IMG/VR virus record: IMGVR_UViG_3300033151_000166 | Coordinates: 1 to 64,000 of that record | Direction: 5' to 3' (one strand) | From: a virus | DNA: 64,000 nucleotides | Part shown: piece by piece, positions 17,926 through 40,179 of the stretch | Position numbering within the stretch: the first letter of the stretch is position 1 | Layout of the letters: every line of letters starts with the position of its first letter | Notes under the pieces: model-generated | The model's database searches: none | What the model was told of the DNA's origin: nothing | Seen by the model: the letters and a program-made list of their open reading frames with translations, nothing else | Program-made: the position numbers and the translations under genes

Positions 17926-18083
17926 CTTGTGATATAATATGTATCAAGAGCAAGGAAGCACTGAGACATATCGATTCTCAGAGTAACTTTAATCTCACTT
18001 GTGATATAATATATGTATGAGTGACTGAGAACCAGCGAGATTTGAAAGAGTCAAAGCAATCTTCAGTCCACTTGCGATATAAT
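17926..18083 (+). promoter_or_regulatory. Three tandem extended -10 promoters
   Basis: CTTGTGATATAAT at 17926 and 17998, CTTGCGATATAAT at 18071; spacing 72 and 73 bp. Confidence 0.8.
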
Positions 18084-18126
18084 ATATATCAAGAGTGAGA
18101 GCTCAAATCAAATCAAGGAGTTCTAA

Positions 18127-18528
18127 ATGAACTTTTCAATCCCAACTGTCGAAGACATCGTAACCAAGTACCAAGCTGTAGAGCTGGACAACCCTGAGCA
18201 AGCAAAAGCTGAACTTATGAAGTTGAACAAAGACGAACTTGTCGAACGTTTAATCCAAGCAACAAGCCACCGTAGTGGAACTGTCCAAGAACTTGCTAAA
18301 GCAATCCTTCAAGATGAGGAGCTGATCGCTGCGAACTATGAGACCATTGCTGATGCCATTAAAGTAATGATGCCTACTGCCAAGACGAGCTCAAAGAGCA
18401 TTGCTTCATATGTAAGCAAGAAACGTGAAGAGTGGGAACTACCTCCAAGAATTCGTATCGCCACTCAACGTCCAAAGAAGGTACCTGAACCTGAAGCTGA
18501 AGCTGAAGCACCTGAAGCTGAAGCGTAA
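18127..18528 (+). CDS. Putative HTH DNA-binding protein with acidic EA-rich tail
   Basis: ILQDEEL..NYETIADAIK...TSSKSIASY aligns with the 27728-28228 product; AAGGAG RBS. Confidence 0.6.
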   Translation: MNFSIPTVEDIVTKYQAVELDNPEQAKAELMKLNKDELVERLIQATSHRSGTVQELAKAILQDEELIAANYETIADAIKVMMPTAKTSSKSIASYVSKKREEWELPPRIRIATQRPKKVPEPEAEAEAPEAEA

Positions 18529-18641
18529 TGGCATTGGCATGGCTATTAGGCCTTGCCGTGTTCCTCTACTCTGTATACGTAGCTGTGAGGTACGTGATCC
18601 CAGCTATCATTCTTCTAACCTACGAATTGTTTAATTCATAG
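18528..18641 (+). CDS. Small membrane protein (37 aa, not in ORF track)
   Basis: TAATG-coupled; MALAWLLGLAVFLYSVYVAVRYVIPAIILLTYELFNS. Confidence 0.55.
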   Translation: MALAWLLGLAVFLYSVYVAVRYVIPAIILLTYELFNS

Positions 18642-19185
18642 GTTCACCCTCCCCACCATTTCATATATCATATTTATTCCGCGAGCCACAACATTTGGGA
18701 ACTATTTTTGTAAAATAATGCAACCCATTTGACTCAATCATTTATCGTATTTCATCCAATCGTGACCGATTTTTGATGCCTGTAACAGCGAGTCGTGAAA
18801 AACGTCAAGGGGTAAGGGACATTTGCAAAATTTTAATTTGGTTTTTCACGTCTAAATATTATGTAAAAGGTACAAATAGACTCTATTTTCATAGACGTCC
18901 AACAGCTGTGATTACCATTGCCATTACAGTGCGATCACTCACAGCGCTTAACAGTGGACTTTTTTTACACATATATATATATATAATAAAGTTATTAAAA
19001 ATAAATATAATATATAATCTTCATGCATATTGACACCGGCTGCATGTTTTGCTCTTTGTTATTTTTATGCGCTGCGTTTTTTTTACAGTCGTACGCTACA
19101 AGGCGTGTTAACATACAATTCGATACTATATTACAAAAATATATTATGAGTCACAGTTCAGCTAATTCCACTGCGTGCGAGCTCA

Positions 19186-19310
19186 ATGGCAATGGCATTT
19201 AACCTTTAACATCTAGGCATTTAACATTTAACATTTAGGCATCAGGCATTTAACATTAGGCAATGGCATTTAACATTAGGCAATGGCAATGGCATCAGGC
19301 AAATCAGCAT
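19186..19310. repeat. Short-unit repeat tract (GGCAAT/GGCATT/TAACAT)
   Basis: Includes GGCATTTTAACATTAGGCAAT twice in tandem. Confidence 0.85.
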
Positions 19311-27647: not shown

Positions 27648-27660
27648 CTTGTGATATAAT
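27648..27660 (+). promoter_or_regulatory. Extended -10 promoter
   Basis: CTTGTGATATAAT. Confidence 0.8.
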
Positions 27661-27727
27661 ATAAATTCAAAAGAGTATTGGTGCGGACAACGGACTGAAA
27701 TCTTTTATCAAAAAACAGGAGTCAATT

Positions 27728-28228
27728 ATGACAAAGACACAATTAATCGCAAGAGCAGCAGGTCTGGGTTTACCAGTAGAAGACAAAGATACAAAAGAGG
27801 TACTTTTAGAGAAAGTATCAAACTTTTTCATCGAAAACGATGACAAAGAGGCGCTAGTATCTTTCCTTGAAGAGAACGGTTTCACTCTTGATGAAGAGGG
27901 TAACGTTGTTAAGAAGTCAAAGCGTGGTAGTCTTGGTGAGAACCCAAATACTAAAGCTTTCCATACGATCAAAGTACTTCAAGATGAGACTCTTGCTGAA
28001 CTATCTTATGCAGAGCTTGCTAACTACCTTAAAGAGACTGAGGGTGTTGAAACTACAGCTAACTCTATCGCTTGGTATGCTAACTGGCTTAAGACTAAAG
28101 GCAAAGAGTGTGTTGCTCGTGCTAAAAAGTCTAAGAAAGCTGACAAAGCAGCAGCTGAAGCAGCAGAAGCAGCAGAAGCAGAAGACGCTCCTGAAGTCGA
28201 AGAGACTGAAGAAGCAGCAGAGGTTTAA
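27728..28228 (+). CDS. Putative HTH DNA-binding protein with basic patch and acidic tail
   Basis: VLQDETL..LSYAELANYLK...TTANSIAWY; AGGAG RBS; paralogue of 18127-18528. Confidence 0.65.
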   Translation: MTKTQLIARAAGLGLPVEDKDTKEVLLEKVSNFFIENDDKEALVSFLEENGFTLDEEGNVVKKSKRGSLGENPNTKAFHTIKVLQDETLAELSYAELANYLKETEGVETTANSIAWYANWLKTKGKECVARAKKSKKADKAAAEAAEAAEAEDAPEVEETEEAAEV

Positions 28229-28712
28229 TCCTCTCTTCACGGCTTCGGCCGTGCATATGGTCAATGACCACCAAATTCGCTGGTGCTTCCCAGACTAAAC
28301 GAAGCTATGTTAATTTATGATAAAGTTATTGAGGGTCTAGCCATCCTCAGTACGTTTGTTCAATGCAGTCCTAGTGGTTTATCCACATTTTCTCCTAGGG
28401 CTTCTAGAGTAAACTATAACATCACTGTGTGATTTTTGATTTGAGTTCTCAGAACATAGGCCCTCATCCTCCTATGTTCTCTAGAGCTCGTCATCTTAGG
28501 TCTCGTACACCTTAAGACAGTTCTACCTGCTATGGGGTAACAACATAGACGAGTGTTCTGATCCCGATTAATACGATTAAGAAAGGCAAACAGGTCGTGC
28601 CTTCACACTCTCGGGTCACTAAAAGTCTCATACCATCTCTAGGTGACCCGGTATTATCCAATCAACCTTCTTTCAATACTTCCCTGACATAACGCCTTTA
28701 GTTAGGGAAGAT
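28229..28712 (+). ncRNA. Putative structured non-coding RNA (array of ~10 hairpins)
   Basis: No long ORF. A cUUCGg tetraloop hairpin and several stems with G-U pairs that work only on the plus strand. Confidence 0.6.
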
Positions 28713-28737
28713 CTCATATCAAGCAAATCTATTCATA

Positions 28738-28750
28738 CTTGTGTTATAAT
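28738..28750 (+). promoter_or_regulatory. Extended -10 promoter
   Basis: CTTGTGTTATAAT. Confidence 0.8.
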
Positions 28751-28779
28751 AATTTAAACTAAAACTCAAAGGCTAGATA

Positions 28780-29355
28780 ATGAATATTACTGATACAGTG
28801 GAACGTCAATGGAATTGGCAAAAGACAATGAACTCGGATTTTGATACTATGTACTTGGCAGCGATCGAAGAAGTTGGTGAGCTCGTAGCAAGCTTTGGAT
28901 ATGCAGACTGGAAAAAGTCAGAGAGAGATACTCAGAACATTCTAGTTGAGTCAGCCGACTTATTTATCTTTGTTATCAACTGTGCATACTATGCTAAAGA
29001 ACCTATTAAAGGTCAACTCAATCCTCATATGACACCTATCGGTGACGATCGCAAATTTGCTCAGACACTCATTAGAGCACTGTCAGAGAACGATATGGAC
29101 TATCTAATCAACATTCTATTTACTGAGTACCCAATGGCATATGACTATGTAATGGCTAAGCAAGCACTTAATGCTCTACGTCAAGATCATGGCTATAAGA
29201 CTGGTGACTACATTAAAAACTGGGGTACAGATACTAAACCATACGAAGACAATAGAGCTTTATCAGCACTACTTGGTCGTGGTTTAAACTACAATGGTAT
29301 GTACTTGGAACTAAACACGCAGTATACTGCAATGATGACTACTAGACTAGGATAA
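28780..29355 (+). CDS. dut: Dimeric all-alpha dUTPase (possibly dCTPase-dUTPase)
   Basis: EEVGEL..SFGYADWKK, VESADLF and KQALNALRQDHGYKTG.Y.K.W...EDN motifs of the Campylobacter/trypanosomatid-type family. Confidence 0.88.
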   Translation: MNITDTVERQWNWQKTMNSDFDTMYLAAIEEVGELVASFGYADWKKSERDTQNILVESADLFIFVINCAYYAKEPIKGQLNPHMTPIGDDRKFAQTLIRALSENDMDYLINILFTEYPMAYDYVMAKQALNALRQDHGYKTGDYIKNWGTDTKPYEDNRALSALLGRGLNYNGMYLELNTQYTAMMTTRLG

Positions 29356-39453: not shown

Positions 39454-39860
39454 TGAAGAAGCGGTGGACGCCAGAGTTCTGGATGGAAGTGGCTGAACTG
39501 TTTAGCAGTCAGTCTACGTGTAACAAAGCCCAGGTTGGTTGTATCCTTACTAAAGATAAGAAAATGATCGCAGCTGGTGTTAATGGCACGACCCATGGTG
39601 ATGACAACTGTTGTGAAGATGACAGTGGACACACAGAACATTGGAGAGTTCACCACGCTGAAATGAATGCCTTGGCAAAGGTAGGTACCAATGCTAAAGG
39701 CTCTGTGGCATACGTCACACTAGCACCTTGCTATGAGTGTGCTAAGAACTTAATACTATTCGGTGTCACCAAAGTATACTACGGCAGTGTCAAAGAAGAG
39801 TATGAAGATGTTCTTATATATTTAGAGTCAATGGGTGTTGACACTGAGAAGGTTGATTAA
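39453..39860 (+). CDS. dCMP deaminase
   Basis: STC...VGC, GVNG, HAEMNAL and PCYEC motifs. Confidence 0.93.
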   Translation: MKKRWTPEFWMEVAELFSSQSTCNKAQVGCILTKDKKMIAAGVNGTTHGDDNCCEDDSGHTEHWRVHHAEMNALAKVGTNAKGSVAYVTLAPCYECAKNLILFGVTKVYYGSVKEEYEDVLIYLESMGVDTEKVD

Positions 39861-39861
39861 G

Positions 39862-40179
39862 ATGGCATTAGAAGGTTTAAACGTAGGCTTCAACATGAAG
39901 ACCGTGCGTGCTGATAGAAAAGAGACGGCAGCTGAGGAAGACAAAGGTAAGATCAAACTTAATTTTAAAACAGTGGCTCGTAAGGGTGGACCTGTTACTA
40001 TAGAGTCTGAAACTATTACGTGGTGTGAAAACCGTGATGAGTCTGATGTATCTGAACTATGGAAGAGATTGTTTATTAGAAAAGAGCATACCACTGAAAT
40101 GGCTAAGCAGTACAAAGATGTTTGTCACTACCTAACTCAAAAGTATGGTTGTGACCTACCTAAAAGGAGTCATAGATGA
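39862..40179 (+). CDS. Hypothetical protein
   Basis: AAGG RBS before ATG 39862. Confidence 0.65.
   Translation: MALEGLNVGFNMKTVRADRKETAAEEDKGKIKLNFKTVARKGGPVTIESETITWCENRDESDVSELWKRLFIRKEHTTEMAKQYKDVCHYLTQKYGCDLPKRSHR

Follow-up and report, generated by a model that had tools for sequence, protein, structure and literature searches.

The 75.7-kb genome of an uncultured marine phage contains a gap of 551 nt (28229-28779) between a conserved gene for a 166-aa protein and a dUTPase-like gene, and the question is whether this DNA specifies an RNA with a function of its own. The stretch of DNA analysed, here called the window, is 64,000 nt long, and positions refer to it unless stated otherwise. 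An initial annotation had proposed that the gap yields a polycistronic array of small RNAs, in which six hairpin loops mimic the reverse complement of translation start regions and silence mRNAs of the host or of competitors. We tentatively prefer a different answer, a 3′-UTR-borne antisense RNA that would act on the phage's own early mRNAs.

Coding content and transcription signals were assessed for the gap and its neighbours, and gave the following arrangement.

27648..27661, plus strand: consensus phage promoter CTTGTGATATAATA, of the extended -10 type, which drives the 166-aa gene and reads through into the spacer
27728..28228, plus strand: conserved 166-aa gene, function unassigned, with 48 homologues and its own promoter in every relative
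28229..28737, plus strand: untranslated hairpin-rich segment, pyrimidine-rich (44-45% purine) and depleted of Shine-Dalgarno (SD)-like sequence
28738..28751, plus strand: next consensus promoter, with one mismatch, which drives the dUTPase-like gene and the primase
28780..29355, plus strand: dimeric dUTPase / NTP-pyrophosphohydrolase-like gene, from Pfam and PHROG searches

All open reading frames with a start in 28229-28779 are 49 aa or shorter, which bears out the earlier statement that the region lacks a long ORF. Stop-to-stop frames inside the spacer reach at most 54 codons, except for one minus-strand frame of 62, and the six stop-to-stop spacer frames had no match in Pfam or PHROGs. No tRNA or tmRNA was found with ARAGORN. 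Rfam release 15 gave 0 matches at gathering thresholds for the whole window, and at E values up to 10 the best scores were 11-18 bits versus cut-offs of 38-100, on the minus strand throughout. These searches agree with the earlier remark that no described family is recognizable here, and a hairpin-rich, non-coding, RNA-level feature of the plus strand is upheld. The 166-aa protein belongs to no Pfam family, has a weak PHROG match, and falls only into unnamed clusters of the protein atlas; its closest homologues (P0002-P0005) are 77-89% identical, and its family profile had only insignificant matches among PDB sequences (E 0.013-0.33).

The consensus promoter has 12 good matches on the plus strand from 17.9 to 38.6 kb, and 14 matches in total versus 1.2 expected by chance. 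No promoter-like site was detected inside the spacer on either strand. Its 3′ end lacks an intrinsic terminator, and only a weak terminator-like site is present at 28327-28352. As two plus-strand consensus promoters bracket the spacer, it is most likely the untranslated 3′ tail of the mRNA of the 166-aa gene. The trinucleotide GGA occurs once on its plus strand versus 5.2 expected (P=0.010), and 6 times versus 14.2 across six related spacers (P=0.0015); its density is 1.9 per kb, compared with 9.2 per kb in plus-strand genes. The region also holds 7 CTAG sites, a number reached in 11% of windows and not special.

All eight hairpins of the initial annotation were confirmed as local folds, with ΔG values from -4.1 to -19.9 kcal/mol.

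28238..28253, plus strand: hairpin 1, with a cUUCGg tetraloop (ΔG -9.7), directly after the stop codon, no U-tract
28330..28349, plus strand: hairpin 2, 7 bp including one G-U pair
28367..28402, plus strand: hairpin 3, which encloses a mini-hairpin and leaves a CAUUUUCUC stretch unpaired
28443..28489, plus strand: hairpin 4, the strongest, with 17 pairs (ΔG -19.9) and CCCUCAUCCUCCUAUG in the loop and 3′ arm
28494..28517, plus strand: hairpin 5
28583..28603, plus strand: hairpin 6
28612..28650, plus strand: hairpin 7, with a 20-nt pyrimidine-rich loop
28679..28710, plus strand: hairpin 8, closest to the next promoter and not followed by a U-tract

The claim that some stems need G-U pairs available only on the plus strand also held: four stems (28330, 28367, 28443 and 28679) contain one G-U pair each that would be an A-C mismatch on the minus strand, and a fifth has one G-U on either strand. 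The cUUCGg hairpin probably serves as 3′-end protection or as a partial terminator. Whole-region minimum free energy (MFE) was alike on both strands (-147.2 versus -145.2), and two hairpins fold more stably on the minus strand. The z-score against shuffles was better on the plus strand (-4.5 versus -1.35), largely because the G-poor plus-strand shuffles fold more weakly. Plus-strand windows of the region had a mean z of about -2 against shuffles, with a background mean of -0.2 to -0.4 (SD 1.3). When the genome was scanned in 200-nt windows, composition-adjusted MFE residuals of the region ranged from about 0 to -2.1 SD; several coding windows reached -3 to -5 SD, and the region was not among the most structured. 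By these predictions its structure exceeds the genome background by a moderate margin only. Pairing in cis of the spacer with its own 5′ UTR (P=0.73) or with the dUTPase start region (P=0.36) was not above chance, and an 8-bp pairing of 28335-28342 with the dUTPase SD in the MFE fold was likewise at chance level.

Complementarity in trans was found between the spacer and two genes of the phage.

28431..28451, plus strand: segment antisense to the 18127 leader, partly accessible (mean P-unpaired 0.30)
18096..18112, plus strand: predicted target site in the leader of the 133-aa early gene with its ATG at 18127, from -31 to -15
28660..28672, plus strand: C/U-rich linker, fully accessible (P-unpaired 0.89), complementary to the SD region of the 105-aa gene 39862
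39846..39858, plus strand: SD region (-16 to -4) of this 105-aa gene, whose start is at 39862, a possible second target

Within the first segment, 28435-28451 can form 17 contiguous pairs with the 18127 leader (16 Watson-Crick and one G-U); beyond this helix follow a 2-nt bulge and 4 more pairs, and the extended duplex has a ΔG of -25.3. Statistical support is modest: the 17-bp match had a P value of 0.0085 against 2000 dinucleotide shuffles, for a target window that was widened post hoc after a first, narrower test had given P=0.09 for this spacer. None of 740 natural sense-strand genome windows reached a match of this length. The target site lies a few bases past the expected transcript start from the promoter at 18071, and the 28435-28451 segment is mostly base-paired in the predicted fold. 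The linker and gene 39862 can form 12 Watson-Crick pairs and one G-U (ΔG -22.1), which as a genome-wide second hit is not significant (P about 0.2). Reciprocal antisense between the 18.5-19.3 kb block and the 27728 leader was not found (P=0.47). Regulator and target share a promoter class, and therefore no temporal logic for the regulation is evident. At least 400 of the 480 nt are left unexplained by the antisense model. The earlier idea that this RNA is antisense to start regions thus gains some support, which comes from the previously unlisted 28435-28451 segment and from the spacers of related phages, and not from the loops that had been named.

Six usable relatives were obtained from metagenome, genome and viral scans. 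At this locus the spacers measure 66-551 nt, that of the window included, and cannot be aligned with one another, and one relative has three extra genes inserted between the two flanking genes. A hairpin lies directly after the stop codon in every relative, with a terminator at the spacer end, and L004, L007 and L009 have a plus-strand intrinsic terminator at the mRNA end. A compensatory change, C-G to U-A, distinguishes the first hairpin of L004 from that of L005. Seed sequence is not conserved in relatives, whose spacers are not homologous to that of the window.

Two of these spacers contain antisense elements analogous to the one in the window. That of L007 has a 14-nt perfect antisense match to the SD and start of an 89-aa gene, and that of L009 has 14 nt, a bulge and 5 nt antisense over the AUG and SD of a 144-aa gene. 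The L009 spacer also carries an inverted copy of a leader cassette common to seven early genes. With target windows of -22 to +6, the L007 or L009 match was reached by 0 of 200 shuffles; with windows of -45 to +10, P was 0.12 and 0.04, respectively. In both phages the antisense element lies immediately 5′ of the plus-strand intrinsic terminator, the usual layout of a 3′-UTR-derived base-pairing RNA. The top targets of the three phages are not orthologous genes, and all fall in the same early cluster, being either the 18127 gene itself or a gene 1-2 kb upstream of its orthologue. When each spacer was compared with the leader of the 18127 orthologue, the best helix started at -30 or -31 in all three phages, with differing sequences and with lengths of 17 bp in the window, 11 bp (P=0.007) and, in L007, 10 bp (P=0.18, not significant). 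Orthologue tests in relatives for the 39862 target, and for a loop target at genome position 75558 described below, were not significant.

The region itself was present at 100% identity in four metagenomes, and contigs from three other studies were identical over the parts of the spacer that they cover. An exact 25-mer of hairpin 7 was absent from IMG/VR. Blastn and tblastn searches with the region and the 166-aa protein found no match among 50,697 GenBank phages. As the closest GenBank matches of the primase, which are Pseudomonas and Vibrio phage proteins, are only 22-28% identical, no cultured relative and no host can be assigned. No RNA run was listed among the sequencing runs that contain the sequence.

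The antisense model that we tentatively favour is as follows. The transcript from the 27648 promoter would encode the 166-aa protein and carry the spacer as a long untranslated 3′ part, kept free of ribosome-binding-like sequence and folded into a chain of hairpins, of which the cUUCGg hairpin and the others probably protect or process the 3′ end. The spacer RNA would then serve as a trans-acting antisense regulator of early messages from the same phage. Its 28431-28451 segment would pair with the 5′ leader of 18127 (-31 to -15) and reach the SD in a second register, and the SD of gene 39862 may be bound by the open linker at 28660-28672; duplex formation at either site would lower translation or trigger cleavage. 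We infer that the RNA accumulates, pairs in the cell and has an effect there.

Nearly as likely as the antisense model, and a serious competitor to it, is a plain intercistronic or 3′-UTR spacer in a hypervariable slot. Its hairpins would protect the 3′ end, guide RNase processing between units or cause partial or Rho-dependent termination, and such termination would insulate the replication genes from the strong 27648 promoter. Variation in spacer length, the failure of spacers to align and the three-gene insertion all fit this reading, as do the hairpin and terminator retained in every relative, the compensatory change between L004 and L005, and a degree of structure that is unexceptional genome-wide. 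Over its final 120 nt the spacer is rich in C and poor in G (C/G 1.7-2.1), as in a rut-like sequence. GGA depletion accounts for the pyrimidine bias: pyrimidine-rich loops are explained, at least partly, by the avoidance of SD-like sequence in untranslated RNA, and would be a by-product of avoiding ribosome-binding sites. The antisense matches, with single P values of 0.01-0.1, would be due to chance, or could be functionless short inverted duplications of recombinogenic intergenic cassettes. Against a plain spacer, 480 nt of function-free RNA would be unusual at about 90% coding density, when 66-120 nt are enough in L006 and L008. The 17-bp match, moreover, exceeds that of every sense-strand genome window, and the top targets of three phages cluster in one early region.

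The six-loop array of the initial annotation is improbable as originally conceived. All six motifs that it named are present and five are mainly unpaired, in predicted accessible loops (mean P-unpaired 0.64-0.86), whereas CCATCCTCA is mostly in a stem (0.23). A comparison of CAU-plus-CCU loops with shuffled controls showed marginal enrichment under post hoc definitions. With a strict definition, a CAT followed by an anti-SD tract occurred 3 times (0.46 expected, P=0.013), with a medium one 5 times (1.7 expected, P=0.027) and with a loose one 9 times (4.3 expected, P=0.027), all three definitions having been picked after the data were seen. Anti-SD 4-mers (12 versus 10.4) and 5-mers (6 versus 3.1) alone were not enriched in the spacer. 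Anti-SD pentamers were enriched when six related spacers were pooled (11 versus 3.4, P=0.003), but not in the spacer of the window alone (3 versus 1.9). A start site deduced from these motifs would place its SD only 0-4 nt from the AUG, closer than in the phage's real start regions, and the motifs are not conserved in relatives. None of the six named loops has a better-than-chance target in the phage genome, where matches reached at best 11 nt, for CCTCCTATGTT, and 10 nt, for the hairpin 7 loop; the former, in hairpin 4, is complementary to the start region of a capsid-like gene of 277 aa that lies beyond the window, at genome position 75558, and is at chance level. Nothing in the analysis hints at mRNAs of a host or competitor as targets. 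Because the region has neither its own promoter nor an intrinsic terminator, an independent polycistronic sRNA array was not borne out.

We give an equally low probability to the reading in which the SD-plus-ATG-like motifs of the minus strand are real or decayed starts of small genes, or the remnant of an inverted accessory gene. One example is an ORF of 33-43 aa at 28530-28661, with a hydrophobic stretch and the look of a type I toxin. The plus strand does resemble in composition the antisense of coding DNA, and the slot tolerates insertions. In L009, which carries the inverted gene-leader cassette, a minus-strand AGGAGG followed after 6 nt by ATG opens a 54-codon frame; this frame, however, would cross the end of the 166-aa gene in antisense. 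The window has no minus-strand promoter-like site in or near the region, which sits inside a 24-kb run of plus-strand genes with 12 promoters on that strand, and no frame has a Pfam or PHROG signal. The micro-ORFs span 5-43 codons with SD-ATG spacings of 0-4 nt, and depletion of GGA on the sense strand argues for a constraint on a plus-strand RNA. The locus lacks the features of a type I toxin-antitoxin system: the SD of the 33-43-aa ORF is weak, and neither a promoter nor a family match was found for it.

An element acting at the DNA level, such as an origin of replication or a group of protein-binding sites, for example an operator shared with the 18127 promoter region, is very unlikely. The region is rich in inverted repeats and sits in the replication module beside ligase, dUTPase and primase, and the 17-mer shared in inverted orientation with the promoter-proximal region of 18127 could be a binding site. 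Yet this 17-mer occurs just twice, the repeats are weak (16-18 nt only), and there are no iterons and no AT-rich unwinding element, the GC content being genome-like at 41-43%. The stretch at 18.9-19.3 kb, which has an (AT)n core and GGCATTTAACATT-type repeats, is a far better candidate for the origin. The UUCG loop, the G-U pairs and the strand-specific GGA depletion are features of the RNA level.

A minus-strand CsrA/RsmA sponge, which would resemble CsrB or RsmZ in stringing together hairpins whose loops repeat a short motif and has AGGAUG-like motifs in or beside three hairpin loops, can be dismissed, as GGA lies on the non-transcribed strand at a chance count (11 versus 11.1 expected; A(N)GGA 1 versus 3.4; one GGA on the plus strand) with only 2 of 11 minus-strand sites clearly unpaired, no minus-strand promoter, and no Rfam match to CsrB, RsmY or RsmZ even at E values up to 10.

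Base-pairing small RNAs derived from 3′ UTRs, such as CpxQ, SroC and DapZ, are known in bacteria. In the lytic Pseudomonas phage PAK_P3, the processed 3′-UTR RNAs ncRNA1 and ncRNA2 provide a precedent (PMC10914365). The spacer resembles both in following a stop codon on the sense strand and in lacking its own promoter, and the relatives share with 3′-UTR-derived small RNAs a seed complementary to an SD or start just before the intrinsic terminator of the mRNA. Unlike either, the spacer of the window is 480 nt long with about eight hairpins and does not end in a U-tailed intrinsic terminator, its predicted targets are early messages of the phage itself, and it is known from sequence alone. It has no sequence relationship to any described RNA.

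Other regulatory RNAs are similar in part. RNAIII of Staphylococcus aureus comprises about 514 nt and 14 hairpins, with C-rich loops that pair with the SD sequences of several mRNAs; it has its own regulated promoter and terminator, encodes a peptide, and carries UCCC loops with verified targets. In size, multi-hairpin layout and pyrimidine-rich loops the spacer is similar, making RNAIII the nearest described analogue of what the initial annotation had proposed. The spacer differs in having no promoter or terminator of its own, no better-than-chance loop target in the phage genome and no Rfam match. The c4 RNA of phages P1 and P7 is a trans-acting antisense RNA, excised from a longer transcript, that occludes the ribosome-binding region of the phage's own ant operon; it is encoded within the same operon, upstream of this target, and forms part of an immunity system of temperate phages. 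The proposed spacer RNA would likewise be cut from a longer message and act in trans on a leader or start region of the same phage, whereas about 10 kb separate the predicted regulator from its target, and the phage is apparently lytic. In phage T7, RNase III processing sites lie between the early genes, each junction having a single hairpin of about 60 nt. The spacer shares with these sites irregular hairpins in an untranslated intercistronic stretch read from strong early promoters, and its 17-pair hairpin at 28443-28489 is of suitable length and is a candidate only; unlike them, it is a 480-nt chain and not a single hairpin.

To our knowledge, almost nothing has been established about what non-coding RNAs do in lytic phages, and we know of no targets for the 3′-UTR-derived phage RNAs that transcriptomics has found. 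Extending the antisense model to this group of uncultured marine phages is more doubtful: the 3′ UTR of the 27728 family might be a fast-evolving antisense module that co-varies with the phages' own early-cluster leaders and starts, including the distantly related gene of the 18127 family, and that is expanded here to a 480-nt multi-hairpin RNA whose extra pyrimidine loops may reach host messages. If the pairing is not real, the region is an ordinary structured spacer, and it would show that pyrimidine-rich 'anti-SD' loops can arise merely from the avoidance of ribosome-binding sites in untranslated RNA. If the pairing is true, it would define a concrete, testable circuit in which one phage message silences another, early, phage message, and which could be traced across related genomes by co-varying complementarity and not by sequence conservation.

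The phage record that holds the window is 75,676 bp long, was judged complete and comes from a hydrothermal-vent sample; three further studies, two of sediment and one marine, gave contigs that match the locus at 100% identity wherever they cover it. CTAG is over-represented in the whole genome (6.7 per kb, compared with 3.6 expected from base composition), the reverse of the depletion that bacterial and bacteriophage genomes usually show. Every gene between 13.4 and 44 kb of the window lies on the plus strand, and the 14-nt promoter consensus CTTGTGATATAATA has 12 good plus-strand matches in the 17.9-38.6 kb interval; all told there are 14, with 1.2 expected by chance. Consensus copies bracket the unit formed by the 166-aa gene and the 551-nt gap that follows it:

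27648, plus strand: consensus promoter copy, upstream bracket of the unit
27728-28228, plus strand: 166-aa gene, preceding the 551-nt gap
28738, plus strand: consensus promoter copy, downstream bracket of the unit

An ATP-dependent ligase gene lies 5' of this unit, and genes for a dimeric-dUTPase-like protein, a primase and an SNF2 helicase lie 3' of the gap, hereafter the spacer. Flanking genes and promoters are on the plus strand without exception, and no promoter-like site was found inside the spacer on either strand. No spacer ORF with a start exceeded 49 aa, no stop-to-stop frame exceeded 54 codons except one minus-strand frame of 62, and no frame matched Pfam or PHROGs, which bears out the absence of a long ORF claimed in the initial annotation. 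It recognized no described family with such a layout, and Rfam and ARAGORN returned nothing for the spacer. We conclude that the spacer is a real plus-strand RNA feature, rich in hairpins and not translated, and most likely forms the 3' UTR, or an intercistronic stretch, of the transcript of the 166-aa gene.

Folding confirmed the eight proposed stem-loops at their positions (dG -4.1 to -19.9); the first, with a cUUCGg tetraloop, stands immediately 3' of the stop codon. G-U pairs unique to the plus strand, which had also been claimed, were found in four stems, one pair in each. The argument from folding for a strand preference is weaker than it sounds: minimum free energies of the spacer were near-equal (plus -147.2, minus -145.2), the minus strand gives the more stable fold for two hairpins, and the better plus-strand z-score against shuffles (-4.5, compared with -1.35 for minus) arises largely because the G-poor plus-strand shuffles fold more poorly. 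In 200-nt windows of the spacer, mean plus-strand z was about -2, where the background lay at -0.2 to -0.4 (SD 1.3). As the spacer reached at most -2.1 SD in a whole-genome composition-regressed scan, in which several coding windows reached -3 to -5, its structure is real but moderate. A degenerate 16-18-nt direct repeat of the CTCCTAnGnnTCTCTAGAG type occurs in three copies (28392-28409, 28469-28486 and 28627-28642), which suggests that hairpin units 3, 4 and 7 derive from local duplication.

The 166-aa protein has 48 homologues, and six loci of related phages were compared: L004 and L005 (near-identical to each other), L006, L007 (identical to L002), L008 and L009. In every one an extended -10 promoter of its own precedes the homologue, and a spacer of 66-283 nt separates it from the next gene. 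None of these spacers aligned with that of the window; each begins with a hairpin immediately after the stop codon, with a compensatory C-G to U-A exchange in this hairpin between L004 and L005, and each is closed by a canonical plus-strand terminator. No terminator was found in the window's spacer. In L002/L007 (IMGVR_UViG_3300033146_005170), three extra genes (L002:4791-6395) lie between the homologue and the dUTPase gene, the first encoding 358 aa with a tandem CPEPPEC-type repeat; this slot is an insertion hot spot. L009 (JALWRR010000076.1, 71,673 nt) was assigned to a 'Promethearchaeati archaeon' MAG, yet its ends overlap by 127 nt, and it is almost certainly an entire phage genome that was mis-binned. 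It has in common with the window's phage the 166-aa gene and the dUTPase-like gene, in the same order, as well as a 277-aa capsid-like gene and a counterpart of the 133-aa early gene at 18127.

Three tandem consensus promoters (17926, 17998 and 18071, within 17926-18084, at 72-73 nt spacing) lie upstream of this early gene. The short leaders of the three are not alike; the array may be a very strong early unit, or may give rise to short leader RNAs. An unlisted, strongly hydrophobic 37-aa ORF (18528-18641, beginning MALAWLLGLAVF) starts at an ATG that shares bases with the gene's TAA stop (TAATG); its product is probably a small membrane protein, and the ORF explains the pyrimidine-rich start of a supposed 'non-coding block'. 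At 18950-19310, a core rich in (AT)n precedes about eight repeats of the GGCATTTAACATT type and GGCAATGGCA repeats; this stretch is a better replication-origin candidate than the spacer. Little is shared by the products of 18127-18528 and 27728-28228: a weak motif (LQDE..L...Y..IA......T..SIA.Y, BLASTP E=1.4), one basic patch and an acidic tail of Ala/Glu. Both genes are promoter-driven; paralogy is possible. Orthologues of both genes are present in all three related phage genomes.

Six of the loops had been proposed as anti-start-site decoys against host messages, carried by an independent sRNA array. That specific model is unsupported. Antisense pairing to start regions as such gained moderate statistical support across genomes, the targets being the phage's own early messages. 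Each spacer was compared with the start regions (-22 to +6) of all ORFs in its own genome. The best match in the window was 12 nt (P=0.09); the L007 phage gave a 14-nt perfect match and the L009 phage a 13-14-nt match, neither reached in any of 200 shuffles. The former spans the SD of an 89-aa gene and directly adjoins its AUG, and the latter (14 nt, a one-base bulge and 5 nt; dG -26.4) covers the AUG and SD of a 144-aa gene. Target windows were widened to -45 to +10, with G-U pairs allowed, after this first test, and the best pairing in the window then joined two sites:

28435-28451, plus strand: best antisense segment of the spacer, absent from the initial annotation
18096-18112, plus strand: predicted target site in the leader of the 133-aa early gene, -31 to -15

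These form 17 contiguous pairs (16 Watson-Crick, one G-U); with the widened target windows, comparison with 2000 shuffles gave P=0.0085, and the score was reached by none of 740 natural windows from the sense strand of the genome. Allowing a 2-nt bulge gives 21 pairs (dG -25.3), and a second register extends to the SD. The target lies a few bases past the point where transcription from the 18071 promoter is expected to begin. For the two relatives, the second test gave P=0.04 and 0.12.

From these complementarities it is quite possible, if short of probable, that the spacer RNA acts as antisense on the phage's own early messages. All three top targets belong to the same early cluster: the 18127 gene itself and, in the relatives, genes that lie upstream of its orthologue, by 1 kb in the L007 phage and by about 2 kb in the circular L009 genome; this was noticed post hoc and is suggestive only. 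Likewise suggestive only, and also noticed post hoc, in each of the three phages the best helix between spacer and 18127-orthologue leader begins at -30 or -31, and the sequences differ (17 bp in the window, 11 bp with P=0.007 and 10 bp with P=0.18). The relatives' antisense elements stand immediately 5' of the terminator, as in the standard design of 3'-UTR-derived base-pairing RNAs.

A purely structural spacer is nearly as likely. Most of the 28435-28451 segment is predicted to be base-paired (P-unpaired 0.30), the top targets in the three phages are not orthologous genes, and the pairings found leave about 400 of 480 nt unexplained. The accessible linker 28660-28672 forms 13 pairs with the SD region of gene 39862 (dG -22.1), not beyond chance, and the hairpin 4 loop is complementary over 11 nt to the 277-aa capsid-like gene's start region, a relation not kept in relatives. 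Recombinogenic leader cassettes, duplicated in short inverted form, could also account for the antisense matches; another part of the L009 spacer is a partial inverted copy of the leader cassette found ahead of seven small early genes. On G003:C76 (1100-3650 and 71328; loci L018 and L021), a roughly 60-nt intergenic cassette occurs in seven copies, each preceding one of a series of consecutive small early genes, with the layout hairpin CCCTC..GAGGG, CTTTGAT, tetraloop hairpin GGGCTT(A/C)GGCCC, TAAA(A)TCCCA and SD. A CsrA-sponge reading was removed by minus-strand GGA in the spacer, exactly at expectation (11 vs 11.1).

The spacer is pyrimidine-rich (44-45% purine, 54% in plus-strand genes). 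The SD core GGA occurs once on its plus strand, compared with 5.2 expected from dinucleotide content (P=0.010), and six times across the spacers of six related phages, compared with 14.2 expected (P=0.0015); its density is 1.9 per kb, compared with 9.2 per kb for the coding strand. An untranslated plus-strand RNA under selection to avoid loading ribosomes would show this pattern, and GGA avoidance offers a mundane origin for the anti-SD-looking loops. All six anti-start motifs of the initial annotation are present, five of them mostly unpaired in the predicted ensemble; the start sites they would mirror have an SD-AUG spacing of 0-4 nt, unlike the phage's real start regions. CAT followed by an anti-SD tract was in excess under a definition set post hoc (3 vs 0.46 expected, P=0.013) and under a looser one, also post hoc (9 vs 4.3, P=0.027), but anti-SD words alone were not enriched in the window's spacer. 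Pooled over six spacers, anti-SD pentamers numbered 11 against 3.4 expected (P=0.003), chiefly from L004 and L009.

P1 c4 is a known case of antisense control exerted in trans on the genes of the phage itself. Noncoding RNAs derived from phage 3' UTRs have already been documented in PAK_P3 (PMC10914365). Given both precedents, an antisense RNA from the spacer, if real, would be of a known kind.
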